Shown: positions 4,775-35,300, counted from the stretch's first letter. The stretch is 64,000 nt of DNA from Candidatus Berkelbacteria bacterium (GCA_026397175.1 JAPLVK010000022.1:5689-69688), one strand, 5' to 3'. Notes: generated from the sequence alone by a model not told the origin. Translations and numbers: made by a program.

Positions 4775-4945
4775 TAAGGACAAGGGGGCCTACTTGCGAA
4801 GCGGCCCCCTATCCTTAACGATCCAACCCCTGCACGCTGTTTCAGGATCAAAAAATCAGCTTCTTCTTTCTGATAAACCTTCTCGACAAGTTTGCGAGTT
4901 TTCATCAGAAGCGAAAAAGCTGATTTTTCTTCCTGAAACGGGAAA
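4775..4945 (+). repeat. Structured intergenic repeat element, copy A
   Basis: Homologous to 35135-35300. It has a GGGGGCC-TACTTGCGAAGC-GGCCCCC hairpin, CCCTGCACGCT, internal hairpins and GAAGCGAAAA. Its arms tgtttcaggatcaaaaaatcagctt and aagctgatttttcttcctgaaacgg are inverted. Confidence 0.5.
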
Positions 4946-5018
4946 TTCAAATTCAATTGTCTAACTGTTTAATTACTTTTCTTGCATTTTTATTTTAAAA
5001 AGTGCTAGAATTAAATTA

Positions 5019-5585
5019 ATGAATAAAATACTTGCTGCACTAATTATTATTTTATCTCTGACTGTCCCATTTTCGTCTGTTTTGGCAGATGGAAAATTAA
5101 CGAATTTCCCGGTTGGATCGTGCAAAACAATAAACGGGGGAATGTGGCAGCAACTCTCCGATGGAACTTGGGCTGACCCAAACGATAAAATCAACACCTG
5201 TAAATTAGGTGGAGCGGGTGGGATTGGTAACCAAAACTACAATGCGTGGACTCAAGCGGGTTACACTCAAAACCAGCTTGGGAATATGACTTATCAGCAA
5301 TGGTTTAACATGTGTGTTTTGACTCAAAGTTTAGTGGCTAGGCCAGAATGCCAAAATTATAACGGCAGTAATTATTACGGAAATGGCGGTTATGGCGGAT
5401 ATAACAATAACAGTGGGTACAATAATGCTTTGTGGTATCCGGAAATGGGACGAGCCACGAACTCTTTCTTCTATTCGGACGATAATCTCGCAATAAGCGC
5501 GCAAATTCCGGCGGAAAACACAACTGTGAGCTCAATTTTAGCCGGTGTAGCCATGGGCTGGATGTTTAATCAGTGGACTAAATAA
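5019..5585 (+). CDS. Secreted Gly/Asn/Tyr-rich hypothetical protein
   Basis: N-terminal signal peptide MNKILAALIIILSLTVPFSSVLA followed by a low-complexity G/N/Y-rich mature part. Confidence 0.5.
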   Translation: MNKILAALIIILSLTVPFSSVLADGKLTNFPVGSCKTINGGMWQQLSDGTWADPNDKINTCKLGGAGGIGNQNYNAWTQAGYTQNQLGNMTYQQWFNMCVLTQSLVARPECQNYNGSNYYGNGGYGGYNNNSGYNNALWYPEMGRATNSFFYSDDNLAISAQIPAENTTVSSILAGVAMGWMFNQWTK

Positions 5586-5586
5586 A

Positions 5587-6429
5587 CTAGATCTTACTTT
5601 TTAAAATCGAAATGAGAGCGGTCCATTGATATTTATTGAGTTCTTCGGGGCGTTGATCTAAATTAAATCCGCATTTCTTAGCAATCCCCTCTGCTTCCTT
5701 CGGTAAAATTTTTAAATTGTTAAAAAGAGAATTTTTGATTTTTTTCCGTTTTGAAGAAAACGCCGACTTGATGATTTTCAAGGCGACTTTTGCCGGTACA
5801 CTTAATTGATTAATGTTGGAAATAACAATCACGGCCGAATCAACATGGGGTGGGGGATAAAACAGATTACGCGAAACATTGTGGAGCAATTTAGTTTCAC
5901 CGAATTGTTCGATAAAAACCGTTAGAATCCCCCGATTTGAATCGTTCGGTTTTGCTAAAATCCGATCGGCCACTTCTTTTTGAAGCATTAGAACCATTGT
6001 TTGGGGCAAGGTCTTTGAGACACTCAAAAGAGAAATTATTGATGCCGCCCCAATATTATACGGAAGGTTTGCGACAACTTTAAAAGGGGACTCAACAATC
6101 AGACCAGGGATTAGAAGCAAAGCGTCTTGGCAAATAATTTTTGTATTTTTGTTCTCGAATCGATTTAATAAATATTGATGAAGATCGCGGTCTTTTTCGA
6201 CCAAAACAATTTCTTTGGTTTTTGATTTGATAAGTTCTTGTGTCAAAACGCCAAGTCCCGGCCCAATTTCTAGAACAGAATCACTGGGGGACAGCAGTGC
6301 CGCTTCAACCATTTTTTTTGCGACGGTATCGGAAATTAAAAAATGTTGGCCTAACGACTTTTTGGCACCACCGTATAAGGAAATAAATTTTTTGATTTGA
6401 GAGAGTTTGGACGGATCAAAATCTTCCAT
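5587..6429 (-). CDS. ksgA: 16S rRNA (adenine1518/1519-N6)-dimethyltransferase RsmA/KsgA
   Basis: SLGQHFLISD...VLEIGPGLGVLTQ SAM motif. The ORF track extends to 6480, but the start is more likely Met-18 (MEDFDPS...), which also avoids overlap with the next gene. Confidence 0.8.
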   Translation of the reverse strand: MEDFDPSKLSQIKKFISLYGGAKKSLGQHFLISDTVAKKMVEAALLSPSDSVLEIGPGLGVLTQELIKSKTKEIVLVEKDRDLHQYLLNRFENKNTKIICQDALLLIPGLIVESPFKVVANLPYNIGAASIISLLSVSKTLPQTMVLMLQKEVADRILAKPNDSNRGILTVFIEQFGETKLLHNVSRNLFYPPPHVDSAVIVISNINQLSVPAKVALKIIKSAFSSKRKKIKNSLFNNLKILPKEAEGIAKKCGFNLDQRPEELNKYQWTALISILKSKI

Positions 6430-6431
6430 CT

Positions 6432-7388
6432 TTATTGTTTTAATTGCTCTACCAAAACCATCGCTCCCTTGCCAGTCCAATTATATCTTAGCTCATCCAA
6501 AACGCCATGGGATAAGTCCAGAACGACATCACCATCGTGATCGGCCGATCCCCAAGTACAGTCAACGGTTTTAATAATTTGCGCCCCATTTGCTTGATTC
6601 GTGATACGAAGGGTGGTTCCTTTTTTGTAGTTTGCGCTGATAACGGAACAATTTGAGGGATTATAAACCGTGGCGTAACCACGCTCCGAACTTAAAACAA
6701 TGACTTTGGTTCCGATCTTAATAATTTCGTCCTGCGGCTTATCAACAATTTCATTTTTTTGCAGCGTTTTTGAGACATCAATTCCGTCCTCGCGGCGAAC
6801 GAGGTAGAGGAGTCGTCTTTTTCCGGTTTTACCAATTTGCGAAGTTGTTTGTTTGCCTCGCTCTAGGGTCGGATCGTCAATTTTTTTTGTCTGATAGGGG
6901 AGTGTCTCAAAGTTCTCAATTTCAGCCAGAGAAACCCTTGTAATTTTAATTAAATTGTCTGCGGGCTCGGAGCCAAGCGCCGGAGAAACCATATCTTCTT
7001 TGGCTAATTGAATACTGGCTCCAGAGAGGATTTCCCCTACTCCCCTCTTAAAAGAATAAACGCCGTATGTTTTTTTGCCGTCTTGAATCGTATATTTTGG
7101 GGCTTTAAAAACCGCCTGGATGCCGCCGATGGCAAATTGTGGGTCCATAATAGTCACGATTTTTTGGGTTTGATCGAAAAAAATATTTTGCAAAATCCCC
7201 TCACCTGGCAGTTGATATTTGATTTCGGGCTCGACAATTTTTTCATCATTTTGAAAATTAGCCAGGGCGATTGCTCGGCCGATTATAAAATTTTTGTCCA
7301 TATTTTCACTTTGCGCATTACAAAAATTTGTGCCCCAAAATAGACCAAAGAAAACTAAAATTAATATTTTATAATTCAATGACTTCAA
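6432..7388 (-). CDS. Secreted G5-domain plus RlpA/3D-like (DPBB) cell-wall-binding protein
   Basis: Signal peptide, then a G5-like middle region. The C-terminus TTLRITNQANGAQIIKTVDCTWGSADHDGDVVLDLSHGVLDEL resembles the RlpA double-psi beta-barrel. Confidence 0.55.
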   Translation of the reverse strand: MKSLNYKILILVFFGLFWGTNFCNAQSENMDKNFIIGRAIALANFQNDEKIVEPEIKYQLPGEGILQNIFFDQTQKIVTIMDPQFAIGGIQAVFKAPKYTIQDGKKTYGVYSFKRGVGEILSGASIQLAKEDMVSPALGSEPADNLIKITRVSLAEIENFETLPYQTKKIDDPTLERGKQTTSQIGKTGKRRLLYLVRREDGIDVSKTLQKNEIVDKPQDEIIKIGTKVIVLSSERGYATVYNPSNCSVISANYKKGTTLRITNQANGAQIIKTVDCTWGSADHDGDVVLDLSHGVLDELRYNWTGKGAMVLVEQLKQ

Positions 7389-9240
7389 TTTGGTTCTCCG
7401 GTAATTCTTGCAAAAATCTAGATGGAATACAGGGCTGCAACTCGCCGTATAAAAATCTGGTTTTGGCGTGGGAAATATACAAGCGGTCCATAGCTCTGGT
7501 CATCCCAACATAAAACAATCGCCGCTCTTCTTCAAGCTCAAATTGATCTTCCATGGATTGAGAATGCGGAAAAAGTCCTTCCTCTAGCCCCGAAATAAAA
7601 ACGACGGGAAATTCCAAGCCCTTGGCGGCATGCACAGTCATTAGGGTCAGCGATTTTTCTTTTTCTTGCAATTCGTCAATATCGGAAATCAAAGCAACCG
7701 AGTCCAAAAATGTTGGTAAATTATTGTAAGCGCTTGCGGCATTTTTGAGCTCTTTTAAGTTTTCGAGCCGTGACTCCGATTCGATTGATCCATCACTTAG
7801 ATATTCTTCGTAGCCAGTGAGTTTTAAGACCTTATCTATAATTAAATCAGGTCGTTGATTTGAACTGGCAAAATCCTTGATCTTATCTAGCATGTTAGAA
7901 AATTCCTTGTACTTGGGAATTTCTTCTTTGGCTTTGTCTAGATCAATTGAAATTTTAGCCAAGGTCTTTTCGCCAATCCCCCGCGAAGGTGAGTTGACCG
8001 CACGAGAAAGCGCAATAAAATCGTTTGGATTTTGCAGAAGCATTAAATAAGCCAAAACATCTTTAATTTCCTTGCGAGCGTAAAATTTTAGTCCACCGAT
8101 TATGCGATACGGAACGCCGCGCGAGATTAACGATTCCTCAAATGCACGGGACTGCGCATTGGTGCGATACAAAACGACAAAGTCACAAAGTTCTTTTTTT
8201 TCTCCTTGAACGAGCGATTCGATCTCATCTAAAATAAACTCGACTTCTTCTTTTTTGGTAGGAGAATTCAAGACGATCACCGGCGCTCCCGCAACTTTCT
8301 CGGCCGTTAAATTTTTGTCAGATCGCATTTCGTTGTTTAAAATAACCGATTGAGCCGCTTTGATAATTGGCGGAGTCGAGCGATAATTCTTTTCTAAATA
8401 AATTACTTTTGCGTCAGGATAATCCTTTTTAAAGTCCAAAATATTTTGAAATTTTGCTCCGCGAAAAGAGTAGATTGATTGCCAGTCGTCCCCTATCGCG
8501 AAAATATTGCGATTTTTTTGCGCTAACAATTTTAGAAAAATATATTGCGCGTGGTTTGTGTCTTGATATTCGTCAACCAAAATATATTTAAATATATTTT
8601 GATAATTTTCTAAAATTTCAGGGTGTTTTTGAAATATCTCGACTGTTTTCATAATCAGATCGTCAAAATCCAGCGCGTCAGCTTTTTTTAAAATTTCTTC
8701 GTAGCGCAAATAGACCTTGGAGACAATTTTCTGGAAATGATCAAAGGCAAATGACTGGTATGCCTTGGCAGAAACCAACTCACCTTTGGCACCAGAAATA
8801 AATGAACGAATTGCTTTTGGGTTATATTTTTTTTCTTCGATTTCGAGATCCTTCATCGCCCTTTTAACTGCGCGCAGAGAATCGTCTGAATCGTAAATTG
8901 TAAAATTTTGCGAGTAGCCAAAAAGTTTGATTTCTCGGCGTAAAATTTTGACGCAAATGGAATGGAAAGTTCCAAGCCAAGGCAAGCGGGAGGGAAGCTT
9001 CCAGCTGTCAGCCGTCAGCAATTTACCGATTCGATCTGACATCTCACCCGCAGCTTTGTTGGTGAAAGTGACGGCTAGAATATTTTGGGGCGAGACCATT
9101 TTGCCGTACATCAAATAGGCGATGCGATGAGTCAAGGCCCTGGTTTTGCCGCTTCCGGCACCAGCAAGAATTAAAACAGGACCTTCGGTTTTTAAGACCG
9201 CTTCCTTCTGACTTTCGTTAAGTGAGCGCAAAACATCCAT
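7369..9240 (-). CDS. pcrA: ATP-dependent DNA helicase PcrA/UvrD
   Basis: LNESQKEAV...ILAGAGSGKTRALTHRIAYL (motif I) and downstream UvrD motifs. The ORF track starts at 9276, but Met-13 (MDVLRSLNE...) matches the canonical UvrD N-terminus. Confidence 0.85.
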   Translation of the reverse strand: MDVLRSLNESQKEAVLKTEGPVLILAGAGSGKTRALTHRIAYLMYGKMVSPQNILAVTFTNKAAGEMSDRIGKLLTADSWKLPSRLPWLGTFHSICVKILRREIKLFGYSQNFTIYDSDDSLRAVKRAMKDLEIEEKKYNPKAIRSFISGAKGELVSAKAYQSFAFDHFQKIVSKVYLRYEEILKKADALDFDDLIMKTVEIFQKHPEILENYQNIFKYILVDEYQDTNHAQYIFLKLLAQKNRNIFAIGDDWQSIYSFRGAKFQNILDFKKDYPDAKVIYLEKNYRSTPPIIKAAQSVILNNEMRSDKNLTAEKVAGAPVIVLNSPTKKEEVEFILDEIESLVQGEKKELCDFVVLYRTNAQSRAFEESLISRGVPYRIIGGLKFYARKEIKDVLAYLMLLQNPNDFIALSRAVNSPSRGIGEKTLAKISIDLDKAKEEIPKYKEFSNMLDKIKDFASSNQRPDLIIDKVLKLTGYEEYLSDGSIESESRLENLKELKNAASAYNNLPTFLDSVALISDIDELQEKEKSLTLMTVHAAKGLEFPVVFISGLEEGLFPHSQSMEDQFELEEERRLFYVGMTRAMDRLYISHAKTRFLYGELQPCIPSRFLQELPENQIEVIEL

Positions 9241-9339
9241 AAAAATAAGAGTAGCAAGTTTGGGGAGGGGATGCAATTTTAGAGGGACAAAAATTATTAT
9301 TTACAGAACTTACGCAACGAAGCCCAATTTTTTGTTGAT

Positions 9340-9419
9340 AACACACTAAAGTGTGGGCTACATTTCCCCTCGTAGGCCATGCTTTAGCATGATAATCAAC
9401 ACACTAAAGTGTGGACTAC
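9340..9419. promoter_or_regulatory. Two direct repeats, each containing the 14-bp palindrome CACACTAAAGTGTG, upstream of pcrA
   Basis: AACACACTAAAGTGTGG(G/A)CTAC occurs at 9340 and 9398; the palindromes are at 9342-9355 and 9400-9413, 58 bp apart and 100-180 bp upstream of the pcrA start. Confidence 0.4.
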
Positions 9420-9442
9420 GGCATTTTGCGTAAGCGCTGTTA

Positions 9443-9471
9443 TTGACTTTTTTGGGTGAAAGTGCTAATAT
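9443..9471 (+). promoter_or_regulatory. Sigma70-like promoter (TTGACT-17-TAATAT)
   Basis: ttgact + 17 nt + taatat, pointing into an ORF-free GC-rich segment. Confidence 0.45.
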
Positions 9472-9478
9472 CTGGGCA

Positions 9479-9912
9479 ATTCGAAGCGTGTTTTCGAAGG
9501 TGAGGCCGACTGGTTTGAGGTACGCTTTGGCTTGAGGATCGGTTAGGTCTGCTTTTTTTCGGCTTAACTTGAATCTCGCCTTGGCGAGTAGCCCAGTCGG
9601 GGTCAGCTTGGTTTGAAAGACCGTCTGCAGTCCCTGGTATCTAATGATCCAGCGGAGACGGTTTTGGTCGGCAGGAATAGCGGTCTGTTGAGGACTTCCT
9701 CCGGACCCCAAGTCCAACAAGCTGAAAAGTGACTGATTTTGAGTGGGCGCGCCAATCACCTTTTTGGTCATATAGACCTGGGTGGGCTCTGTCGCTTAAA
9801 GTCAGTGAGAACACGCAAGAAGCGATTCACATTTTTCTTGATTAGTTTCTTCAAAAGATGTGATCGCACCATGGGGGCGGCTCGGAAACGAGCCGCCCCT
9901 AAATCATTTTTC
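9479..9912 (+). ncRNA. Candidate structured non-coding RNA of unknown class (about 430 nt)
   Basis: Bounded by a plus-strand promoter and a GC hairpin with GAAA loop plus T-run (9874-9912). No plus-strand ORF with an RBS. Long-range complementarity (CCGACTGG...CCAGTCGG) and local hairpins (ttcgaa..ttcgaa, CTCGCC-tt-GGCGAG). GC-richer than the flanks. Confidence 0.3.
9874..9912 (+). terminator. GC-rich hairpin (GNRA loop) plus T-run
   Basis: ggggcggctcg-gaaa-cgagccgcccc followed by taaatcattttt. Confidence 0.5.
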
Positions 9913-9926
9913 AGGTTACAAATTTG

Positions 9927-9964
9927 CGCATTTTGTCCGATCGGACAAAATGCGCAAATCATAA
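9927..9964. repeat. 38-bp perfect palindrome, CGATCG-core family
   Basis: atttgcgcattttgtccgatcggacaaaatgcgcaaat. Confidence 0.6.
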
Positions 9965-10090
9965 TCTATCGACAAATATTAATCTCGCATTCGCGAAGGA
10001 TTCTTCCCCCGAACTAGATCCGAGATCAATGACTAAAATTGGAGTATGCAAAGATTAAACCCTTACAAAGAGAATCATTTTAATAATTAG

Positions 10091-10146
10091 ATCAATATCA
10101 TAAATATTGATATATTGCACTTTTAGTACGATCGTACTAAAAGTGC
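10091..10146. repeat. Two adjacent palindromes upstream of the 10298 gene, including a 30-bp CGATCG-core palindrome
   Basis: atcaatat-cataa-atattgat (10091-10111) and gcacttttagtacgatcgtactaaaagtgc (10117-10146). Confidence 0.6.
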
Positions 10147-10297
10147 ATAAGATCTAGGAGAGGATACATTAAAAAATGTTAATTTACGGAAATTTTAAAA
10201 TTTGATTTGAAACAAAAATTCTGTAGCTTGAAGTTGAAATTAAGAAGAGTAAGATATTAGATAATTAAGCAATCAACAAAGTCCTTTAGGAGGGATC

Positions 10298-12034
10298 ATG
10301 GATTTGGATAAAAAACATCACGATGCGCCGAGAGTTGTGAATATTGGAATTTGGTCTATGGCCGTTGTAGGGGCACTCGCGTTTGCAATTTCGTTGGGCG
10401 GATGGTTTTATTCGTCTGTTGAATCGCCGATTTCGGCAAGTACCTCGGCCGGGTCGGGCACATGTCCGTCTGATAAACAAATTGCGATTAATAACTATCC
10501 CGGGACCAGCAAAGAATACCATGCCCTTTTGAGCAATTCGCGCGATCAAAATTGGCGATGCTCGCTTGTCTGTAATACTTCCGGAAAATCACCCGATGAG
10601 TTTATCAAAGGGTTAACAATTGGTGGAAAACCAGTAATTATTTATAGCACAGGCGATGAATTTAAAAGTAAGGGCAGTAACATCGGTAAGGATGATTTTG
10701 ACCGAGTCGTTGTTAGCGGCGCAACAAAAGGAAAATGTGAAGGCGCGAAAACCGGATCGACAAACGGCGCAAGCATTGACTATGTAGACATAAAATATAA
10801 CGACAAAGCAGTTGAACCACTTTCGAAGAATGAAACAATAAAGGAACTTTCGCAGGCAGCCAACGCCGACACAAGCAGCAATGAGCTACCAGCACCGATT
10901 GATAATCCAGGATCATCGCCAAGCGGGACAGACAGCACGACGACACCTGGACAAAAAGATGGTGTTCCAAAAATAAAGATTGTGAAACCAGGAACGCTAG
11001 ATCCCGATGCTCCGTCGTATACAATCCAAATTTCTGGAATTGAAAAATATTCCGACAGTACAAGAAAACCCGGAGATATTAGTATAACTGCAGCATTAAG
11101 CGACACTGACAGTAAGAGTGCAAAATTTCGTAATTCTCCAATTTGCGCTAGTGCTATGACACAAGGACCGGATGGTCATTATAATATGGAGTTTACGGTT
11201 GACGGAATATGGTATAGAGCAAATAGGAGTGCAAAGATATATTATTATGCTCTCGAAGAAACGGATGGGGCTATCCCTGAACAAAATAAAAGAAAACGAT
11301 CTTCATCGGATTCACTAAATAATCCAAGATATGTCCATTATGACGGCTCCACAATCCAAATAAAATATAACGAGGAATCCCTTTATGGTGTACAAGGTAG
11401 CGAAAATCCTGTTTTAACTTCAGCACAAGAATTGCAACAACAATGGGAATCTTTCGCAAGTGCGACAAAGTTAAATAGTTCACAGATGAATCAATGCGGG
11501 GGCTTGTCTTCGGGACCAACGCAAACAACGCAGGAAGTAGCGCAACAAACAATGCAGCAGATTACAAATCGAAATGGAACAGTTACATTTAAAATTTCCG
11601 GAAAAGTGTGGTGGAATTTTGCCGGAGGGTTAGAAAGTAAAAAAGCGGTTATTTGCGCAGCAATGTGGAATACTACTGACCCAGACGATCCTAAAAAAAG
11701 AAGTAAGATACCAAGCGAAGAATTCCAAAAGGTCAAGGCAAATACCAATGGAACATTTAGTATTGATTTGCCTGTAGCCATAAGGAATCTAAGGGGGCTA
11801 AGCATTGTTGCATTTGATCCCGGAGGAATTTATAGACCAAAATATTATTATTTCGGTCAAACTGCACTTGCTATGAAAAGCTATGTTATAAATGCAGTTG
11901 ACTTAACCACAAATAATTCTGCGTATGATGTCCCCTTCAACATAGGAAATCAGCTAGATCTTCAACAGGGTTATGGTGATTCAAAAAGGTGGCGAAACGA
12001 GTTCTATTATGCAACTGGTCACTACTGCGAATAG
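10298..12034 (+). CDS. Membrane-anchored large surface protein (hypothetical)
   Basis: 578 aa with an N-terminal transmembrane helix and a Ser/Thr/Asn-rich extracytoplasmic region. GGAGGGA RBS. No recognisable catalytic motif. Confidence 0.55.
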   Translation: MDLDKKHHDAPRVVNIGIWSMAVVGALAFAISLGGWFYSSVESPISASTSAGSGTCPSDKQIAINNYPGTSKEYHALLSNSRDQNWRCSLVCNTSGKSPDEFIKGLTIGGKPVIIYSTGDEFKSKGSNIGKDDFDRVVVSGATKGKCEGAKTGSTNGASIDYVDIKYNDKAVEPLSKNETIKELSQAANADTSSNELPAPIDNPGSSPSGTDSTTTPGQKDGVPKIKIVKPGTLDPDAPSYTIQISGIEKYSDSTRKPGDISITAALSDTDSKSAKFRNSPICASAMTQGPDGHYNMEFTVDGIWYRANRSAKIYYYALEETDGAIPEQNKRKRSSSDSLNNPRYVHYDGSTIQIKYNEESLYGVQGSENPVLTSAQELQQQWESFASATKLNSSQMNQCGGLSSGPTQTTQEVAQQTMQQITNRNGTVTFKISGKVWWNFAGGLESKKAVICAAMWNTTDPDDPKKRSKIPSEEFQKVKANTNGTFSIDLPVAIRNLRGLSIVAFDPGGIYRPKYYYFGQTALAMKSYVINAVDLTTNNSAYDVPFNIGNQLDLQQGYGDSKRWRNEFYYATGHYCE

Positions 12035-12048
12035 AACACTTCGACTTG

Positions 12049-13833: not shown

Positions 13834-13871
13834 AAATCTAAAACAGATCCTGCAATATGAATTTTAAAATT

Positions 13872-13948
<77 letters not shown>

Positions 13949-14079
13949 TCATATTTAGAAGAATAGCAAATTTCCTCGAATTAGTCAATTTACAGATTAA
14001 CAAATTTTGCGAAATAGTAAAGAGCTCTTTACATTTATGGTTTTTTTTATAAAATAGAAATGTGTTAAAAGTATAAAGT

Positions 14080-14156
14080 GACAGTGTAGCTCAGATGGTT
14101 AGAGCGAGGGAATCATAACCCCTAGGTCGCTGGTTCGATTCCAGCCACTGTCACCA
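14080..14156 (+). tRNA. tRNA(CAU): elongator Met or Ile2 (lysidine) type
   Basis: GACAGTG-TA-GCTC...anticodon loop AUCAUAA...T-arm GGUCGCUGGUUCGAUUCCAGC (resembles ileX-type T-arm), with encoded CCA. Confidence 0.75.
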
Positions 14157-14232
14157 CACTTCGCCCTTCGGGCTTCGCGTGGCACAGCCACCTTCTTATT
14201 TCTGGGCTACGGGTGGCAAGCAGCCATTTTTT

Positions 14233-14643
14233 TTATAAAGTGTCGAGGGCGTGGTTGACGAGAGAGTCCGCTTCTTTGTTATCCTCTCGTCTGATATGAG
14301 AAAAATTTATCGTCCCGCCGTGTTCGGATAACTTCTGCTTAATATCTAAATAAATAACTTTTAAATTTTGATCCTTCACCTTGTATTGGCCATTTAGCTG
14401 GCGGCAAACTAATTCGGAATCCAAAAGAAAATCAATATTGGCTTCTTTTTCGTTCTCCAAAACCCACTCGAGGGCTTTTTCTATGGCCGTGTATTCTGCA
14501 ACATTATTAGTTTCGACTCCGATACACTCGCTTATTTTGTGGATAATCTTACCCGATTCAAAATCAACAATTACAATCCCGATTGCGCAAGGACCGGGAT
14601 TTCCTCTTGATCCCCCGTCTGTAAAAATTTTTAACTTCTTCAT
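14233..14643 (-). CDS. rnhA: Ribonuclease HI
   Basis: FTDGGSRGNPGPCAIGIV...NNVAEYTAIEKAL...REDNKEADSL catalytic DEDD signature. Confidence 0.85.
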   Translation of the reverse strand: MKKLKIFTDGGSRGNPGPCAIGIVIVDFESGKIIHKISECIGVETNNVAEYTAIEKALEWVLENEKEANIDFLLDSELVCRQLNGQYKVKDQNLKVIYLDIKQKLSEHGGTINFSHIRREDNKEADSLVNHALDTL

Positions 14644-17515: not shown

Positions 17516-17557
17516 AGATTTTATCTTGATCGTTTTCTCCTTATTATTTGGCTATGC

Positions 17558-18034: not shown

Positions 18035-18062
18035 ATCCCTCCTTTTCCGCCTAAGGCGGAAT

Positions 18063-18836: not shown

Positions 18837-18865
18837 GATTTTATACGACAGATACAGTAACTGGT

Positions 18866-20484: not shown

Positions 20485-20487
20485 AAC

Positions 20488-23813: not shown

Positions 23814-23825
23814 AGCTATTATCCG

Positions 23826-25322: not shown

Positions 25323-25386
25323 TTCCCTCCTTTTTTTGCTCTAATTTAATTATACTTTTTAAAAAATCAAATGCAACAACAGCGCG

Positions 25387-28278: not shown

Positions 28279-29030
28279 ATTTTTTCCTTCGATAAATCTA
28301 TTATCATTTCCCCGTTATACGGGATAAAAATATGCAACAAATTGCACCTGCTGACATCAACATCTAGCATCGCTTTTTTGTTGTCTTCGGATTTCATTGA
28401 TTGAGTAATTGTGCCGCATTTGTCTCCCTTATCATTCAAGAAATAGCCAAAATATTTGAGGTTCTGTACTTTGCGATTCGAACTCACGGTAATTTCGTAA
28501 TAAGGAATCTTGTTCATGTCGGTCAGAGCGGGGCTGACGGGCGAAGGACTAACGGTAGGCGCTGGTGTTGCACTTCCGGCAGGAACTTTTATTTGAGTTG
28601 ACTGCGGTGTCAAATCGATCGTCTTTTTCTCGATTTTATCGACTTTGAATTCGCCTTTTTCGAATTTCGCATTTTCTCCTACTGTTGCGTTCTTTGTAGC
28701 AGGAACCGGCAAGATGTTCGAAAATGTCTCGCAGAAGCGCGGATCTATTTCTGCAATATTATTGATCTTATATTTTCCGCCTTCTTTCTTTAGTTCAAAA
28801 ACAGCGATGTCTTCAACGGTTTTCTCGCCTTTTTCGTCAAACTGCGGAACCTGCATTTCAACTTTATAATTTAAAATGCCTTTGGATAATAAGTTATAAT
28901 CAATTGTTTTTGATTTTGTATTTGATTGTTTTGCAACTTTTTTATAGTTTTCCGTAAAGTATGAATCAAAGTCCGGCGAAATTGACGAAGAATCAATTTT
29001 TTCCCTGAGCTGCAAGACATTTTCAACCAA
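28275..29030 (-). CDS. Hypothetical protein, possibly the body of an interrupted secreted protein
   Basis: TTG-start ORF. It is in frame with an upstream 23-codon signal-peptide ORF (29067-29138) across a single TAA at the head of an A16 run. Confidence 0.4.
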   Translation of the reverse strand: MVENVLQLREKIDSSSISPDFDSYFTENYKKVAKQSNTKSKTIDYNLLSKGILNYKVEMQVPQFDEKGEKTVEDIAVFELKKEGGKYKINNIAEIDPRFCETFSNILPVPATKNATVGENAKFEKGEFKVDKIEKKTIDLTPQSTQIKVPAGSATPAPTVSPSPVSPALTDMNKIPYYEITVSSNRKVQNLKYFGYFLNDKGDKCGTITQSMKSEDNKKAMLDVDVSRCNLLHIFIPYNGEMIIDLSKEKI

Positions 29031-29052
29031 TAATTTTGTGCTTTTTAATTGA

Positions 29053-29068
29053 TTTTTTTTTTTTTTTT
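29053..29068. repeat. T16 (plus strand) / A16 homopolymer tract
   Basis: gatttttttttttttttttaa; 16 consecutive T. Confidence 0.8.
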
Positions 29069-29137
29069 AAAATTTTGCACCTGCAAAGATAATGGTTGCA
29101 GCAATTGCCAAAACAAAAATAAGTAATATCTTTTTCA

Positions 29138-30622
29138 TTACTTTCCCGGGGCAAAGACGATGCCGTTAAACTTTGTGCAAGTTGGGGTAAATTTGACTTT
29201 TCCGCCATTGATGACAATTAAACCGAGATAATCGTTGTCAGTAAAACCCGTGTCCGTGGTTAAAATATTGACAATCCCGTTCGATTTTCCGTTAAAATCA
29301 ACAATTACCGTGCCCTTGCCGTAAATCGGACCATTAATATTGATTGTTTCATTATCTCCCGTAGCTTTATAATACCACACCCGTCCATTCGGCCAGAAGC
29401 TCGACTTTATGTTTTCGTGGATTTTACAATTTGCGTTATCTAAATATAAAGCACCCTTCAGCTGGCCGGTTGCAGTTATATTGCAGGTATTATCCGGCAA
29501 CACACCACTTGCATTTGGCATAAATCGTTGAATATTATCATACATAGTTTTGTTTTTGTCCTTGTTGCTATCATCCCAATAAATCACCGAATTTTTGTCG
29601 AACTGATAATTATAAAGCGCGGTAGCAGCATTGAGCTTATTGTTCGGGTCATACGCACCTTGTGTGGTGGCTTGGGACCTGGAGCCAAAATCAAGGGCAG
29701 TCGAAGATGTATTTCCCCCGCTAAATAAGTTGCCGAAAAGATAAAAAGCGGGAGAATACATAAGGTAAGAAGGATCGTAGGCCAAAACATCTGAACCGGA
29801 GCTTGTCGAAATTTTTACCGGAAGCGAAAGCATGGTTCCGCCTCGACTTTTTTGGCCTAGTCCTCGCTGAAAAAGATACGAAATGCCACGGCCTAAAGTG
29901 CTGTTATCTGTCGCGCTGGCGTTTACTTTGCCGGAAAATATGCCGTTTAGATTAAGCAATTTGTCGTCGTTTTGAAATTCTAGGGCTTTAGTAGTATCGA
30001 GCGCGCCATCCTTGGAATTAATCCACGGCACGCCCTTGACCATTAAATAACTATTAGCCGTTCCCAGGGCCTGATTTTCGTCGTTTGAGTCCAGAACTAT
30101 TGTTCTCGCGCTCACAAGTCGGTTTTGTTCGGAAAAATCATAAAGCAATTTAAACTTATAGCAATAGTATGTGTCACCTTGTGCAATTTCTTGGTTATTC
30201 CAATCAACATATCCATCCGCGTTTGGAGTTACAACTTGGTCAACAAGACGATCAGCATCCGAAAGTTTACAATCATCCTTACGCGAAGGGTTGGAGCCGA
30301 AGTTATCATAAACTGGCAAAAAATCCCTGATTTTGGCATTTACGCTTGCTGCATTGTTTGAAGTTACTTTGATCCGCGCGACTACCGTATCGCCTGTTTC
30401 AAAAGTTGAGGTCTCGTTGCCATTTAGGAAAAATTTCTTTTCAACCAAAACAGAAGTGGTACGATTGGAAAGTATTTTTTTGATTATAGATATTATCGGC
30501 CCCGCAGGAGGCATAGCAAAAGCCCGACTTGAAGTTACAAGTAACGCGCAAAAAATAAGCAAAATAAAAAAAACATTTTTTGTCTTAAACTTACTTAAAA
30601 AAAAATTCTTTACTTTCGCCAT
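29138..30622 (-). CDS. Secreted hypothetical protein
   Basis: The start was taken at MAKVKNFF... with signal peptide ...FILLIFCALLVTSSRAFA. The ORF-track N-terminal extension overlaps the upstream gene. Stop and next ATG overlap as TAATG. Confidence 0.45.
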   Translation of the reverse strand: MAKVKNFFLSKFKTKNVFFILLIFCALLVTSSRAFAMPPAGPIISIIKKILSNRTTSVLVEKKFFLNGNETSTFETGDTVVARIKVTSNNAASVNAKIRDFLPVYDNFGSNPSRKDDCKLSDADRLVDQVVTPNADGYVDWNNQEIAQGDTYYCYKFKLLYDFSEQNRLVSARTIVLDSNDENQALGTANSYLMVKGVPWINSKDGALDTTKALEFQNDDKLLNLNGIFSGKVNASATDNSTLGRGISYLFQRGLGQKSRGGTMLSLPVKISTSSGSDVLAYDPSYLMYSPAFYLFGNLFSGGNTSSTALDFGSRSQATTQGAYDPNNKLNAATALYNYQFDKNSVIYWDDSNKDKNKTMYDNIQRFMPNASGVLPDNTCNITATGQLKGALYLDNANCKIHENIKSSFWPNGRVWYYKATGDNETININGPIYGKGTVIVDFNGKSNGIVNILTTDTGFTDNDYLGLIVINGGKVKFTPTCTKFNGIVFAPGK

Positions 30623-30644
30623 CTTTTGTCTAATTTCCCTGTAT

Positions 30645-30923
30645 TCATTTTCCCGCTGCTGGATTGAAGCCGGTCTCAAAGTGATAATCGTTTTGCCCAT
30701 GCAGAATTGCCGAGGCCTGCGCGCGGGCGCGAACGGACTGGATGCTAGATGGAGGTAACTTGCCTGCAATTCGATAAAATGCTTTTGCTTTCTTATAACG
30801 CTCGACATAAACTGCGATCTTATTTTGAGGCAAAAACAATTTTACCGCGACCAAACCAACCACCACTCCCAGCACCAAACCCAATAACAATGTATAAATT
30901 TTTATTTTCTTCTTGTGTCTCAT
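30645..30923 (-). CDS. Small membrane protein
   Basis: Transmembrane helix YTLLLGLVLGVVVGLVAV; operon context. Confidence 0.35.
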   Translation of the reverse strand: MRHKKKIKIYTLLLGLVLGVVVGLVAVKLFLPQNKIAVYVERYKKAKAFYRIAGKLPPSSIQSVRARAQASAILHGQNDYHFETGFNPAAGK

Positions 30924-30930
30924 GTCTCAT

Positions 30931-31377
30931 TTAATGCACAATGCCGTCTACATGCCATTTGGTAACAGTAGCATTTTCCGCTGGGTTTACCCGACAATTT
31001 TCTGGCAAACCGTTAACAAACACAACGCCATCCCTACCGTAGCTGGTTATATAATCAGTCGTTCCGCCATTCTGCTCTTCGATGTTTTGGGCTGAAGAAA
31101 TTCTACCAAAAGTACCTGCGACACGCGGACCGGTGAAGTCAATCCAACCGCCAGGTTGTGCACAACGAGATACACCTAAAACTTCCGTTGCCGTCCAATC
31201 CTCGGCAAAACATCCGGTACCTCCGGCCGCATCCGAACATGTACCAACATCTGTCGCTTTGGCTTCTTTTGCCCCTTTATTTCCTTTTGAGATGCCGACT
31301 CCGGTCCAGACCACGGCAGCTATTATTGCAAGAACTGCCCCAATACCGATTCCAACATAAAAACTTTTTTTCTTCAC
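30931..31377 (-). CDS. Membrane-anchored hypothetical protein
   Basis: N-terminal transmembrane helix plus a Cys-containing extracellular domain. Confidence 0.4.
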   Translation of the reverse strand: MKKKSFYVGIGIGAVLAIIAAVVWTGVGISKGNKGAKEAKATDVGTCSDAAGGTGCFAEDWTATEVLGVSRCAQPGGWIDFTGPRVAGTFGRISSAQNIEEQNGGTTDYITSYGRDGVVFVNGLPENCRVNPAENATVTKWHVDGIVH

Positions 31378-31443
31378 TCTCTCCTCCTTTTTTCCGCAAC
31401 CAGCGGAATTAATTTATAATTTATGCATACACATCTTAATGAT

Positions 31444-31923
31444 CTATGGCGTCAGATTAAAAGAATAAGTAAAGGTATTTTTGCCTTTCTTGAGCTCAAT
31501 ATTCGAACCCTCCTTATTACCAACTATAGTAATTTTACCATCGGGTACAGTAAAACCCGTAATCGGTCTTGGTTCTCCGTCAGCTGGTTTAAAAGTAATT
31601 AAACCACTATCATTCAGCGCAGTAGCGGGAACAATATCTTCAATTGTGTAATCCTTTCTGGAACTACTTGGTTCATAAACCGTCAACTCAACATTTACTC
31701 TCTCCCCCGCCTCAAAAGTGGCATTTTCCTGGGTGCCTTTTAAGATTCGTTTGGTAACCAAAAGTGATCCGCTCGAAGAAGCCCCCTCTGGCAATGCCCT
31801 GGCTCTTTTTATCGGCCCTTTGCTGTAGAAGTTAAAAAAGACGCTGGCGCCAATAAAAACAATCAGTAAATACACAAAGTACTGACCGAAAAATGCCGGA
31901 AAATACCTTAATCGTTCTTTCAT
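31444..31923 (-). CDS. Membrane-anchored hypothetical protein
   Basis: N-terminal transmembrane helix, then a beta-rich domain. Confidence 0.4.
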   Translation of the reverse strand: MKERLRYFPAFFGQYFVYLLIVFIGASVFFNFYSKGPIKRARALPEGASSSGSLLVTKRILKGTQENATFEAGERVNVELTVYEPSSSRKDYTIEDIVPATALNDSGLITFKPADGEPRPITGFTVPDGKITIVGNKEGSNIELKKGKNTFTYSFNLTP

Positions 31924-31988
31924 TCCCCTCCGGAGATAAAGTTTATCTTATTTAACAATACCAAAAAATTTCAAAAATCAAAGTATTT

Positions 31989-32432
31989 TTATTCTTCCTG
32001 CTCGATTCCCCTAACAAAATCATACCATTTCTGCGGGTTTGATTTATGGATTTGAATTGAAGGATTTTGGTTGACCGGCGCAAAAACATCGGGAATCGTT
32101 TCTGCCGAGGGTTCTACTTTAACAGAAACAACCTTCTCGCCAGGCATTTTGAATCCAAGTTTTTTTCGCGCCTCAAGTTCCTGAAAAGCCCCGGTCTGAT
32201 AATACGCAATCAGTGTTTCTAGCCGCGCTTTATCCTGATTTACCTGTTTTAAATCATTTTTTAAAGAATGAATTTTCTGATTGGTTTGATAATTTATTGA
32301 AATCGCTTGGTAAAGAAGAAAAATTGCGTAGGCAATAACCAATAAAATTATAATGGATAGATAATTAAAGCCCGGTTTCCCCGCTGTGTCATTATTTGAT
32401 TCAGAATTAATTTGAGAATTATCCACGAACAA
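31989..32432 (-). CDS. FtsB/DivIC-like septum-formation-initiator family protein
   Basis: Transmembrane helix plus coiled coil, then QELEARKKLGFKMPGEKVV (the FtsB C-terminal signature). Confidence 0.5.
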   Translation of the reverse strand: MFVDNSQINSESNNDTAGKPGFNYLSIIILLVIAYAIFLLYQAISINYQTNQKIHSLKNDLKQVNQDKARLETLIAYYQTGAFQELEARKKLGFKMPGEKVVSVKVEPSAETIPDVFAPVNQNPSIQIHKSNPQKWYDFVRGIEQEE

Positions 32433-32460
32433 ATTATACCAAAATTAGCGCAGGTTAAAT

Positions 32461-34221
32461 CTACCAACGGGTTTCGCGTTTTGGAGAGTCGTCTTTTTCA
32501 GCTATTTTTGACAATTCGTCATTTGTCTTAGGACTTTTATCTTTAATATTTTTTTCAAGAACAGAAAAGGAATTTTCTTTAGGCAGATCGTCCCCTAAAC
32601 GGCTACTTCCCTTAGTCGAGTTTGAAGCCACAACCCACTCATAGCCATAGTAGCCGGCAGCCGCTAGCGCGCTGGCAAGAGCAACCATAGCCAAAATCAA
32701 TATCCAAACACTCCAATTGACGCCCAAATCCCTTGTGTCAGAAGATGAAGAAATCTGCCCTACTTTGGCGACTTCCTCCGGTTTTGGCTGTGCTGGCTGC
32801 GTTGGAGATGCCTGGATGTCTCGATAAATAATTTGTGGCTTAACATCTTGCGTTTGTTCGACATCGCTTGACTGTTGTTCGGTAACTACCGCTATTTTCG
32901 GCAGTGATTTTTGAGAAATTTCAAATGATGAAAGTTGAATTTTACTTACATTCAAGGCCTTATCGGTTACGGTCAAATAAACTACATGGCTTCCAATCGG
33001 CAGATTGGTCGAATCAATCTCCAGCCGCCAACTCCCTGTCCCATCCGCCGTAGTATTAAAAACAAGCGGATCAGAGAAAATCTCCAATTTAACATTGGCG
33101 TACGGTTCGGTTTCTCCGCTAAAAACAAGGGTTGTCCCTTGCTCAATTTTCCCAGACGGACTTTGCGTTACGCCCGCTTGAGGAGCAGTTGTGTCAACAG
33201 AAAAATTGATAATTTCGGAGGTCTTATTTAGCGCCAGGTCTGTTGCCGATAGCGTGAGAATGTGATCGCCATCAGCCAAATTTATTAAGTTAACAACAGT
33301 TGGGTCAAGGTTTGTGCCGTCAAGATTTATAACGACCGGACTTAAATCGGCAACGCTGTATGTTAAGGGAATCGTACTTTGATTATAGGCAAAGTCGTTT
33401 TGGGGCGAGGTAACGCTCACTTGCGGAGAGTTAGCATCAATTTGAAAATCAATAGGAATTTCTTTTTGATTGTAAATTTGGCAGTTATCTGCAAAATCAC
33501 ATATATCTACATTTTCAACGGTAATTTTAGCCGCCGCATCCAAGTCGCCTTCTTGGATAATATAATTCGATTGATAAAATATGTTTTTACCTGATCCTAT
33601 CTTATAGAAAGTTAATGCACGATCGTACAAATTGGCATTGATGGACTTAATATCTGTCGAGATTACAGCGGGCATGAAAATAATATTGACACTATCTCCA
33701 ACACCAAGGACTATTTTATTCTTAAGGGCAAGTGGTTTCTCTGCGCTAAAAGTTCCGGTTGGAGTAGCAAAGTCGGCGATAAAACTTAACGGAGCGGCAA
33801 GAATATTTTGGTATTCAGCGTCCTTCGTGGCTCTCGCTTTAATGTAAATTTTGTGTGAAACATTGTTGTCGGATACACCGTAGTCGAGCAGCGATTTTAA
33901 ATCAGCTAAACTGCTTGTTTTGGAGGAAAAATAATAGTCGGTTGTATTATCATAAATCCTTTCGTCAAAAGGCAAAGCCGTATTATCCAAAAAAGCCGCG
34001 ATATCATAGGGCTTTAGTTCGTCTGCTAGATTTAGATAAACCCTGAATCCGGTGTTTGATAAGTTTAAATAACCTTCCGGCGTTAATGATTTATTGGGCA
34101 AGGAAACAAATTGAGCCGTAGTAACACCTTCCGCTGCTTTGGCTTCAGATGGTTTTATTAAAAAACTAAAGGAGGAAAATATAATCGAAACCACAAGGAT
34201 AAGATTGAGAAGTTTTTTCAT
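32461..34221 (-). CDS. Large secreted Ig-like-domain surface protein with C-terminal transmembrane anchor
   Basis: Start taken at MKKLLNLILVVSIIF (signal peptide). Repeated beta-sandwich-like modules and a C-terminal WSVWILILAMVALASALAAAG helix. Confidence 0.45.
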   Translation of the reverse strand: MKKLLNLILVVSIIFSSFSFLIKPSEAKAAEGVTTAQFVSLPNKSLTPEGYLNLSNTGFRVYLNLADELKPYDIAAFLDNTALPFDERIYDNTTDYYFSSKTSSLADLKSLLDYGVSDNNVSHKIYIKARATKDAEYQNILAAPLSFIADFATPTGTFSAEKPLALKNKIVLGVGDSVNIIFMPAVISTDIKSINANLYDRALTFYKIGSGKNIFYQSNYIIQEGDLDAAAKITVENVDICDFADNCQIYNQKEIPIDFQIDANSPQVSVTSPQNDFAYNQSTIPLTYSVADLSPVVINLDGTNLDPTVVNLINLADGDHILTLSATDLALNKTSEIINFSVDTTAPQAGVTQSPSGKIEQGTTLVFSGETEPYANVKLEIFSDPLVFNTTADGTGSWRLEIDSTNLPIGSHVVYLTVTDKALNVSKIQLSSFEISQKSLPKIAVVTEQQSSDVEQTQDVKPQIIYRDIQASPTQPAQPKPEEVAKVGQISSSSDTRDLGVNWSVWILILAMVALASALAAAGYYGYEWVVASNSTKGSSRLGDDLPKENSFSVLEKNIKDKSPKTNDELSKIAEKDDSPKRETRW

Positions 34222-34374
34222 AAAATTGTTCTTGTTATTTGGGTTGGGGGCCAAAAAAAGCCCCGCATAAAATCACCTTTTGATTTGCGAGGCCATAGCT
34301 TGTATGCCATAGCTTTATCTTTTCGACTGTAGCAAAGAAAAATAGGTTGTCAAGAGTTCTTGGGCGATATAACA

Positions 34375-34405
34375 AAAGTCCCGGTCAATCACCGGGGCTT
34401 TTGTT
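34375..34405 (-). terminator. Terminator downstream of the CAP-domain gene
   Basis: aaaagtcccggt-caatc-accggggctttt flanked by T/A runs. Confidence 0.5.
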
Positions 34406-34479
34406 ATAAATTATCGGATATTTTTTGAGACCCTTCATCGAACCCTCCTTGTTATGTATTGATAAAATTTTGCTATATT

Positions 34480-34980
34480 TTATTCTTTACCAAACATTTG
34501 GACGAATACATTGGTACTCCTTCCTTCGAAATTACCTGTTAATTCGGCAAATCCAAAATCAGAGTAATTTTTTGAGGCAATGTTAGCTAAATGAGAAGGG
34601 CTGTTTAACCAAGCATCGAATGTTTGCTCTTGGGAATCAAAGTCAACACCCAAATTTTCTCCGGCAAATCTATAAGAGTAGTCCTCGGATAAAATAAAAT
34701 CCCAGGCCTTCTTGCCATCGGGCGAAGTATGATCAAAATATTGTTTATTTAAAATATCCTGCGCTTTATCGTCAGCGGCTTTAGCTAATTTATCGTTCCA
34801 CTTTAACTGGGATAAATGATTTTGAGTTCTATAATTATTGACTAAATTTAAAGAAATTTGATCGGAAGGGACAAGAGTGGAAGCAGAGGTCTTATCGGAG
34901 TTAATAATAATTAGACCGGATCCAAAAATTATAAAGGTGAAGACAGATGCGATGAGTACTGGTTTAAATATTTTTTTCAT
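34480..34980 (-). CDS. Secreted CAP/SCP (YkwD-like) domain protein
   Basis: Signal peptide, then YFDHTSPDG...GENLG...WLNSPSHLANI, the CAP motifs. Confidence 0.75.
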   Translation of the reverse strand: MKKIFKPVLIASVFTFIIFGSGLIIINSDKTSASTLVPSDQISLNLVNNYRTQNHLSQLKWNDKLAKAADDKAQDILNKQYFDHTSPDGKKAWDFILSEDYSYRFAGENLGVDFDSQEQTFDAWLNSPSHLANIASKNYSDFGFAELTGNFEGRSTNVFVQMFGKE

Positions 34981-35134
34981 TTTCCTCCTTGAGTCAACTC
35001 ACGATCGTATATTAACTATAAATAGTATAACATGTTATATAGGATATGTCAAGCTAGCACTGTATACCTTATTTTGTTCAATAAATTTTAGTAGCAAGCT
35101 TGCAGCTTGCAGGATTAATATTAAAACCAAAGGG

Positions 35135-35300
35135 GCTTCTTGCGAGGCAGCCCCTACGGTTTTAATGATTCCCTACCCTGCACGCTCAAAAGCATGATTT
35201 TCTTTCTGTGGAATATCCTTCCGGAATTCATCCTTGGGCAGGTTTGCCAAGGTATTCAGTTCCGGCTTTCCACGAAGCGAAAATCATCTTTTGTTAAAGG
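35135..35300 (+). repeat. Structured intergenic repeat element, copy B
   Basis: AGGGGCT-TCTTGCGAGGC-AGCCCCT hairpin, TTAATGATTCC, CCCTGCACGCT, internal hairpin ccttgggcaggtttgccaagg and GAAGCGAAAA; collinear with copy A. Confidence 0.5.

Follow-up and report, generated by a model that had tools for sequence, protein, structure and literature searches.

An uncatalogued family of modular, structured, multicopy intergenic elements in Patescibacteria and Helicobacter

A 64,000-nucleotide stretch of Candidatus Berkelbacteria DNA (GCA_026397175.1, JAPLVK010000022.1:5689-69688; hereafter the window, with positions counted from its first letter) carries two similar intergenic sequences, here called copies A and B. 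Do they represent a noncoding RNA (ncRNA) or a miniature inverted-repeat transposable element (MITE), the two options that a first-pass annotation had offered, or something else? We found that both are members of an uncatalogued family of modular, structured, multicopy intergenic elements of ~170 to 250 nt. The earlier view of a repeat family with a selected structure stands. No terminal inverted repeat (TIR) or target-site duplication (TSD) was seen. As for the choice between ncRNA and MITE, our data suggest an element that combines traits of the two. The observation is sound, has firm statistical backing, and proves larger than could be seen from the window; it describes a new family with an unusual combination of properties.

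Copies A (~4745 to 4943) and B (~35094 to 35305) are collinear stretches of ~200 bases each. They are 67% identical overall, 73% in a conserved module made of a hairpin and a core motif, and 61% in a long hairpin. Each comprises a ~100-nt hairpin and the invariant motif CCCTGCACGCT, as well as a GC hairpin whose 12-nt loop is conserved. The motif CCCTGCACGCT occurs at 4828-4838 and 35176-35186 and nowhere else in the window, even when one mismatch is allowed. Likewise, CTTGCGARGCNGCCCC has its sole window sites at 4793 and 35139, with 0.16 chance matches expected at up to two mismatches, and GAAGCGAAAA is found in both copies alike. In copy A, the GC hairpin joins GGGGGCC (4784-4790) to GGCCCCC (4803-4809) across the loop TACTTGCGAAGC (4791-4802); in copy B, GGGGCT (35132-35137) pairs with AGCCCC (35149-35154). 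Reading of the sequence confirmed all blocks named in the first-pass annotation at their places in both copies, including two internal hairpins whose pairing is preserved, CTCG (4882-4885) with CGAG (4895-4898) around the loop 4886-4894 in copy A versus CCTTGG (35232-35237) with CCAAGG (35247-35252) around the loop 35238-35246 in copy B. These hairpins are exactly as described and were nevertheless understated, since they are only the tips of ~100-nt hairpins (4839-4939 in A and 35187-35293 in B). The element reaches slightly past the proposed extents, 4775-4945 and 35135-35300, up to small flanking hairpins at 4745-4761 (A) and 35094-35110 (B).

Both copies fold far better than expected from their composition. 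None of 200 dinucleotide shuffles was as stable as the native sequence, for either copy on either strand, with z-scores of -9.7 (A) and -4.7 (B) on the minus strand and -8.8 and -5.0 on the plus strand. We then used R1, a covariance model of the conserved 75-nt module that was built from relatives. On the window, R1 scored copy A at 72.2 bits (E = 1.1e-16) and copy B at 76.4 bits (E = 1e-17); the likeness of the two sites is not due to chance. R1 found no third copy in the window, the next real match scoring below 10 bits.

Two pattern scans together recovered ~100 further copies outside the window. The genome scan, which used a pattern joining the hairpin loop to the core and one genome per species, returned 77 stretches. 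About 40 of them are real copies, located in low-GC contigs and showing the whole architecture; the rest are chance matches in high-GC genomes. The real copies come from the WS2 bin ADurb.Bin280, several Saccharimonadales, Berkelbacteria, other Patescibacteria, bin DTUPAT3, and two Helicobacter metagenome-assembled genomes (MAGs). The scan of metagenome contigs, which used only the 24-nt top of the hairpin, gave 60 loci, and nearly all of these carry AGCGTGCRGGG upstream at the expected distance. R1 matched 51 times in the loci fetched from the genome set and 79 times in those of the metagenome set, diverged and truncated copies (the latter in L081 and L034) included. In the sampled contigs, copies occur about once per 30 to 100 kb, which by extrapolation, and not by count, would imply ~10 to 30 copies per genome. 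The multicopy family suspected in the first-pass annotation is thus neither limited to two copies nor without conservation in relatives. Because it occurs in both Patescibacteria and Helicobacter, its distribution implies horizontal transfer.

The family does not correspond to any catalogued one that we could find. At the gathering threshold, Rfam 15 recognized only five tRNAs and an AdoCbl-II riboswitch in the window. In permissive mode, copies A and B gave only generic long-hairpin matches to plant microRNA precursors (41.9 bits versus a threshold of 83), and 12 family loci gave no match at an E value of 1 or less. An Rfam scan, one of the checks suggested at the outset, thus assigned neither the two copies nor these 12 loci to a family. 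A full-text literature search that included the motif sequences found nothing on the family. Three scans of viral contigs gave no real match, the sole match (L143) lying in a coding region of a high-GC phage, and plasmid blastn gave no match to the element; an origin in phages or plasmids was rejected on these grounds.

Read on the window minus strand, as is the case for the anatomy throughout, the element runs from a variable long hairpin through a small hairpin (in many lineages), AGCGUGCRGGG, a G-rich segment, and a two-tier hairpin to a small GC hairpin. The 3' module begins with AGCGUGCRGGG and ~8 G-rich bases. These are followed by an outer stem of 7 to 10 bp and, past a small internal loop, by the inner stem GGGGCY/RGCCCC with the loop GCYUCGCAANUA. 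An alignment of 25 diverse copies of the module has 28 invariant columns. The inner stem and the 12-nt loop are almost invariant, while the outer stem covaries freely and is wholly different between lineages (UUAAGGA, AAAACC, GAUAGAACC, GCGAGGG, AAGGGGGA, and others).

Compensatory change was seen in both parts of the element, the figures being pair counts in alignments, with statistics that ignore kinship. In the module hairpin, pairing holds in 88.5% of the cells, and both partners have changed in 11 of 16 pairs; when the 3' partner was slid by one column as a control, pairing fell to 65 to 68%. The long hairpin of the B type, aligned from 6 sequences, has 31 predicted pairs, 16 of them compensatory, and that of the A type has 41, of which 14 are compensatory in the subfamily alignment. 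Judged from these alignments, the helices of the family are maintained by compensatory change, which bears out the selected structure that had been proposed from copies A and B.

The long hairpin comes as several distinct subfamilies, each conserved across genomes, and copies A and B belong to different ones. A-type members are copy A, which is 81% identical to six A-type copies of the WS2 bin, these copies themselves, and L120, L111, and L115. Besides copy B, the B type comprises L083, L089, L095, L099, L100, and L133 and is characterized by four helices and a conserved internal loop, ACUGCAUACC/GGAUAAAU. A third subfamily, common in GC-richer Saccharimonadales-like contigs, has a hairpin closed by A5...U5, in which tandem G.A pairs (CGAG facing CGAG) were read by eye; between this hairpin and the core lies a small one that covaries. 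For the S-type subfamily, the full-length consensus fold was poor due to alignment problems, and several of its helices were recognized by eye only. The G-rich segment that follows the core pairs with upstream sequence in minimum-free-energy (MFE) folds of both window copies and in single-sequence folds of 55 of 67 family members. In the Helicobacter copies, the long-range partners CUCCCAACC and GGUUGGGGG appear by eye to covary. In its overall plan, the element thus joins a 3' module that is conserved to a 5' domain that can be exchanged.

Some modules are interrupted. L085 (860-891), L127, L134, L136, and L102/L110/L116 carry inserts of 60 to 110 nt that have their own hairpins and separate the inner stem from the core or from the outer stem. 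These inserts resemble the expansion segments of structured RNAs.

Which strand carries the structure? The module helix, read on the minus strand, contains 24 G-U pairs versus 11 A-C pairs, the latter being G-U on the other strand, and the module is more stable on this reading in 68 of 74 elements (less stable in 5). The long hairpin showed no strand bias (37 versus 37). The structured strand is therefore more likely the window minus strand than the plus strand on which the first-pass annotation wrote its motifs, and the same data fit an RNA or a single-stranded DNA. Coding was rejected as an explanation: copy B does not conserve a 60-amino-acid (aa) minus-strand open reading frame (ORF) that lies over copy A, nor, upon hand translation, do the WS2 copies, and alignment indels are not multiples of three.

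The features of the window copies can be placed as follows, all on the minus strand. In copy A, sequence reading, together with the same feature in relatives, identified a small flanking hairpin, GTAGCCC-TTC-GGGCTAC (4745-4761), preceded on the plus strand by a T6 run (4739-4744). It is the counterpart of the small GC hairpin that lies 3' of the module in most members and is flanked by A-runs, so that the opposite strand reads as a hairpin followed by a U-run, like a terminator facing the element. The conserved 3' module (4767-4840; cmsearch with R1 and hairpin covariation) contains the core AGCGUGCAGGG, the reverse complement of 4828-4838. Its outer stem is 4774-4780/4812-4818, its inner stem 4784-4790/4803-4809, and its 12-nt loop GCUUCGCAAGUA (4791-4802). 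The variable 5' domain, a long imperfect hairpin of the A type (4839-4939; fold and subfamily alignment), has the closing stem GUUUCAGGA/UCCUGAAAC, the conserved internal loop UUUUCGCUUC/GAAAGAAGAA, and the tip CUCG-CAAACUUGU-CGAG.

Copy B, by sequence reading, has the small flanking hairpin GCAAGC-UGCAA-GCUUGC followed by an A-rich tail (35094-35110); its plus-strand version was listed as terminator-like in the terminator scan. The 3' module (35114-35188; cmsearch with R1 and fold) contains the core (reverse complement of 35176-35186), an outer stem (35121-35128/35158-35165), an inner stem (35132-35137/35149-35154), and the loop GCCUCGCAAGA. Directly 3' of the inner GC hairpin lies UUUGGUUUU, and this arrangement resembles an intrinsic terminator. 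The 5' domain is a long four-helix hairpin of the B type (35187-35293; fold and subfamily alignment) with the conserved internal loop ACUGAAUACC/GGAUGAAU and the tip CCUUGG-CAAACCUGC-CCAAGG. In the MFE fold, the 5' strand of the predicted long-range helix, CCUUUCCU (35298-35305), pairs with the G-rich AGGGUAGG just past the core and encloses the long hairpin.

A further hairpin near copy B contains part of the same loop. The terminator hairpin at 35326-35352 (minus strand), just downstream of tRNA-Ile(UAU) (35381-35455), has the loop GCUUCGCAAAC, which contains the 9-mer GCYUCGCAA; the element, located 130 nt beyond, has this 9-mer in its invariant loop. It occurs five times in the window, always on the minus strand. 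The tRNA-Ile terminator loop may be what is left of a module that decayed, or else a recognition motif common to both. In the Helicobacter MAG contigs L007, L026, L035, and L053, a second short repeat, CGCTCGCAATGAC/GTCATTGCGAGCG, occurs many times within ~600 nt of the element and has UCGCAA in common with the element loop.

We next turned to the genomic surroundings. In the window, the neighbours are as first annotated: miaA lies upstream of copy A, its product matching a Candidatus Berkelbacteria MAG protein at 100%, and copy B is surrounded by tRNA-Ile(UAU), the CAP-domain gene, and an L,D-transpeptidase gene. Copies of the family are intergenic, and the adjoining ORFs are unrelated housekeeping genes (recA, recX, uvrA, prfB, dnaK, ftsK, and others). 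All-against-all clustering of 761 ORFs located within 2.5 kb of the copies, at ~90 loci, gave clusters of housekeeping families only and no recurrent same-strand upstream ORF. A Pfam search of transposase-size ORFs in the window, and of the ORF enclosed by the L088 pair, returned nothing relevant. Genes converging on the element end at a median of 76 nt from the hairpin. A linkage to tRNA genes was rejected, a tRNA being present within 600 nt at only 4 to 5 of 89 loci. The element lies in the same orientation as its upstream neighbour in 29 cases and in the opposite one in 40; for the downstream neighbour, the numbers are 33 and 34. Orientation is therefore random family-wide, and a role as leader or 3' untranslated region is ruled out, in agreement with the earlier view that the copies are not simple cis-regulatory leaders.

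Amplification is seen in the WS2 bin ADurb.Bin280 (MWBO01). It contains at least 12 copies, many of them at contig ends, and its contigs break at the element. Six A-type copies of this bin are 94% identical (90 to 98%), while a control 5' stretch 90 to 190 nt upstream is only 54% identical; nearer flanks are partly repeated between some copies. Since two subfamilies coexist in this bin and in the window, the subfamilies are old, and amplification within genomes is recent. In L122, only 9 nt separate recA from recX. The recA-recX junction of the related L087 holds ~200 nt, consisting of a terminator and a complete element antisense to recA; elements also lie between recA and recX in the Saccharibacteria contig L065/L113. 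No module was found near miaA in five Berkelbacteria relatives (~60% MiaA identity), in which gene order also differs, so that this is not a clean empty site.

Copies also tend to occur as inverted doublets. Among close pairs within 1 kb, at least 11 are divergent, that is, head-to-head with adjoining 5' domains, 2 are convergent, and 1 is tandem. The head-to-head pairs (L083, L098, L113/L065, L114, L128, L131, L133, L088, L017, L076, and L019) are spaced by 13 to ~700 nt, and it is only in such doublets that inverted modules stand at the ends. The pairs of L083 and L098 combine 5' domains of different subfamilies, the left member of L113/L065 is diverged and untyped, and the paired modules of L017 and L076 are only 13 to 16 nt apart.

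Tandem 7- to 8-nt repeats in 4 to 10 copies were noticed 150 to 270 nt upstream of the element in L006, L008, L023, L048, L074 (WS2 bin), L086, and L111. Their units differ by locus (for example, GTATAAC, AATTAAG, and TAGCTGT x10), and the intergenic DNA of the WS2 bin commonly contains such repeats. They are real in this bin and at a few loci and were rejected as a general feature of the family.

How does the element compare with known systems? It is like HEARO/IscB-TnpB omega-RNAs and the ORF-less IS200/IS605 derivatives (PATEs) in being structured, 150 to 300 nt long, present in many copies, many of them ORF-less, across unrelated phyla, and in having a strand-specific hairpin near one end. 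In TnpB right-end RNAs, too, conservation is strongest in the 3' part and the upstream part is variable. However, unlike HEARO or IS605-orfB, it has no Rfam match even in permissive mode, and no TnpA, TnpB, or IscB gene lies within 2.5 kb of any copy. Nor does it have the unique guide-like flank of omega-RNAs, the sequence after the module being itself repeated in the WS2 bin, and its orientation relative to neighbouring genes, a proxy for replication direction, is unbiased. Membership in HEARO or IS200/IS605 is not supported: Rfam gives no match, neither a nuclease nor a transposase adjoins a copy, and orientation relative to genes shows no bias.

Similarly, REP/REPIN sequences mobilized by RAYT are intergenic and multicopy, with imperfect hairpins, a single-stranded motif beside the stem, and frequent inverted doublets. 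Yet REPs are short palindromes of 20 to 40 nt with a 5' GTAG-type tetranucleotide, while our unit is 5 to 10 times longer (170 to 250 nt) and multidomain, has a core common to classes and phyla rather than species specific, and forms head-to-head doublets with 13 to 700 nt between the members. No RAYT or Y1 transposase was found among the neighbours within 2.5 kb of the copies. ERIC, Correia/NEMIS, BOX, and RUP are likewise dispersed intergenic repeats of 100 to 250 nt with stable folds and no ORF; BOX is also modular, and Correia can carry terminator or promoter activity. But each of those repeats is confined to a single genus or family, with little covariation at depth, whereas the element spans a superphylum with compensatory evolution and expansion segments; Correia and RUP, moreover, have recognizable TIRs and TSDs, which we did not see. 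The same holds for MITEs derived from DDE transposases, in which one unit carries TIRs and is flanked by a TSD. In a broader sense, the WS2 bin shows the many similar copies, unrelated flanks, and absence of an ORF of a MITE or dispersed repeat, and the family shows the compensatory change in helices and the strand asymmetry of a structured ncRNA gene. Compared with intrinsic terminators, copy B and low-GC members share a GC hairpin plus U-run on the minus strand, as well as the flanking small hairpin with its opposite-strand U-run. An invariant loop, an upstream invariant motif, and a ~100-nt conserved 5' domain are foreign to terminators, and in GC-rich lineages the outer stem replaces the U-tract. 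A group IIC intron was rejected, since ribozyme domains including domain V and at least 400 nt would be expected, whereas the unit has ~200 nt and no group II Rfam match; such introns should also lie on the same strand as the terminator, and the structure of the element favours the strand opposite to the adjoining one.

We favour, at a probability of roughly one half, a non-autonomous, amplifying mobile element in which the selected feature is the fold of a single strand. This reading is preferred because it joins a fold under long-term selection to the behaviour of a repeat, namely amplification, presence or absence as a whole block at one junction, and spread across phyla. The fold of one strand, most probably as a transcript, would be kept by selection. 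Its multihelix domain, predicted long-range helix, and expansion segments are typical of RNAs, as are the invariant loop and the single-stranded motif. A protein whose gene lies elsewhere in the genome, either an enzyme that copies or moves the element or an RNA-binding partner, may dock at the invariant core and loop, and the terminator-like hairpins on either side would keep transcription of neighbouring genes from reading into the core. The closest working analogy would be the ORF-less copies of RNA-bearing IS200/IS605-type elements (HEARO/omega-RNA-like, PATEs).

Several observations weigh against this interpretation. We found no autonomous copy, transposase, reverse transcriptase, or nuclease within 2.5 kb at any of the ~90 loci, and orientation relative to neighbours is unbiased (62 same, 74 opposite; gene direction being a proxy for replication direction), while a lagging-strand-dependent mechanism as in IS200/IS605 predicts a bias. 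There are no classical TIRs, since single units have unlike ends (long hairpin versus module). No TSD was present at the outer ends of 11 doublets or of the WS2 copies, although these ends are not base-precise and short TSDs could be missed. The recA genes of L087 and L122 are only 79% identical, so that insertion and deletion are not separable there. The strand asymmetry in MFE could partly reflect G-richness rather than selection. Evidence for a promoter is weak, the sole candidate being a WAATAR hexamer 3 to 4 nt upstream in one subfamily, and no sigma-70-like site was found on the minus strand at the window copies; an intrinsic terminator for the proposed RNA is apparent in low-GC lineages only. 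Finally, the near invariance of the core across deep lineages would fit a host-beneficial RNA equally well.

An alternative is a family of ordinary chromosomal small-RNA genes that act in trans, with a conserved protein-binding 3' scaffold and a variable 5' domain, spread by duplication rather than transposition. We regard this as possible rather than probable. It would account for the deep conservation, covariation, and expansion segments, for the strand asymmetry of the module, and for random orientation, which is expected of independent genes. The excess of head-to-head pairs (at least 11 divergent versus 2 convergent and 1 tandem) would then reflect divergent genes sharing a promoter region, the WAATAR hexamer resembles a -10 box, and flanking terminators would insulate the transcription unit. 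On the other hand, at least 12 copies of 90 to 98% identity in one small genome, with contigs breaking there, are unusual for small-RNA families, occurrence in both Patescibacteria and Helicobacter needs horizontal transfer, and the modules of L017 and L076, 13 to 16 nt apart, leave no room for promoters or 5' domains. The truncated copies (L081 and L034) and the lack of a clear terminator in GC-rich lineages also fit poorly. If the transcript is instead irrelevant, the element would be a mobile repeat acting as DNA only, of the REP/REPIN or MITE/PATE type, in which the hairpin and single-stranded motif would form the recognition and cleavage site for an HUH-type (RAYT or IS200/IS605 TnpA) or other transposase that works on folded single-stranded DNA. 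Multicopy, intergenic, ORF-less units, REPIN-like inverted doublets, and the filled and empty recA-recX junction agree with this. The hairpin does so as well, since, as HUH substrates generally do, it combines a conserved loop and upper stem with a freely covarying lower stem and a conserved motif on its 5' side; wobbles on one strand are also compatible with G-T in single-stranded DNA. We nevertheless consider it unlikely. A ~100-nt multihelix covarying 5' domain, a long-range helix, and expansion segments exceed what end recognition by a transposase needs, and REP sequences vary by species along with their RAYT, while the core is the same across classes. There is, moreover, no strand bias relative to genes, no transposase at the ~90 loci, no TSD or consistent flanking target, and no match in the plasmid or viral collections.

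A cassette domesticated by the host to terminate transcription on both sides or insulate intergenic regions, or else to stabilize mRNA, as proposed for REP and Correia, appears quite improbable, because terminators need neither the invariant 11-nt motif and 12-nt loop nor a four-helix domain with conserved loops. In addition, the terminator scan found none on the minus strand at either window copy, and GC-rich lineages have no U-tract after the module. It would explain why a small GC hairpin with an opposite-strand U-run abuts the module (L070, L046, L088, L123, and L087), why the long hairpin lies between an A-tract and a U-tract like a bidirectional terminator, why UUUGGUUUU comes after the inner GC hairpin in copy B and other low-GC members, and why converging genes end so close to the hairpin. 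The succession of long hairpin, small hairpin, conserved single strand, and terminator-like hairpin recalls T-box-like leaders. A cis-regulatory leader or riboswitch is, however, contradicted by random orientation, by the random distance to downstream genes, by neighbours that are unrelated housekeeping genes, and by the absence of an Rfam family match. A small-protein or type I toxin gene with a structured untranslated region fares no better. Helicobacter L007 abuts, on the other strand, a hydrophobic ORF of 45 to 78 aa with a good Shine-Dalgarno sequence, which is absent or interrupted in L026, L035, and L053, and inspection of the genome-scan sequences showed no small hydrophobic ORF beside the copies of the candidate phyla radiation. 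Together with the unconserved 60-aa ORF of copy A and indels that are not multiples of three, this leaves the leader and toxin readings with hardly any probability.

One may go further, though we hold this extension to be rather doubtful, and consider that Patescibacteria have a mobile element or mobile RNA gene of their own, RNA-based and of a new class, whose transcript would offer a universal docking core (AGCGUGCRGGG and the GCYUCGCAANUA loop) to a conserved protein. Candidate partners would include a nuclease for which the RNA is a scaffold or guide, and a reverse transcriptase or recombinase by which it is copied, and the interchangeable 5' domains might give the subfamilies different specificities. 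The A-rich tail after the 3' hairpin and the random orientation would also fit a retroposon resembling short interspersed elements, for which we know of no bacterial precedent.

Patescibacteria have tiny genomes (~1 Mb) with very little noncoding DNA, and to our knowledge almost nothing is known about their noncoding RNAs and mobile elements. Because a fold of ~200 nt recurs densely, with an identical core across long-diverged classes and also in Helicobacter, the element would be either a very successful selfish element with an unusual structure-dependent spread or a multicopy RNA with a basic cellular partner. In either case, it would offer a handle on a system of protein and nucleic acid in bacteria that are highly diverse and poorly understood, and the covariance model and subfamily alignments make it directly testable.

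The window contains other features of note. The AdoCbl-II (cobalamin) riboswitch aptamer lies at 44914-44984 on the minus strand (40.3 bits versus a gathering score of 36.5). Two tRNA-Trp(CCA) genes (61228-61303 and 61788-61863, minus strand), 560 nt apart, belong to an 87-nt repeat with 94% identity; they enclose a 155-aa ORF, and a gene for a class I Trp/Tyr tRNA synthetase adjoins at 61874-62872. Repeats at 39381-39748 inside a 765-aa ORF (37852-40149, minus strand) show 12- and 18-nt periodicity, six copies of a 72-nt register, and an additional 42- to 51-nt repeat, suggesting that the product is a low-complexity repeat protein. Finally, a palindrome of 34 to 40 nt (CTGCACTTTTGAGACGATCGTCTCAAAAGTGCAG-like) is present in three copies (10111-10150, 54183-54222, and 54868-54907), the last of which is perfect, and could represent an operator or a second small repeat family.

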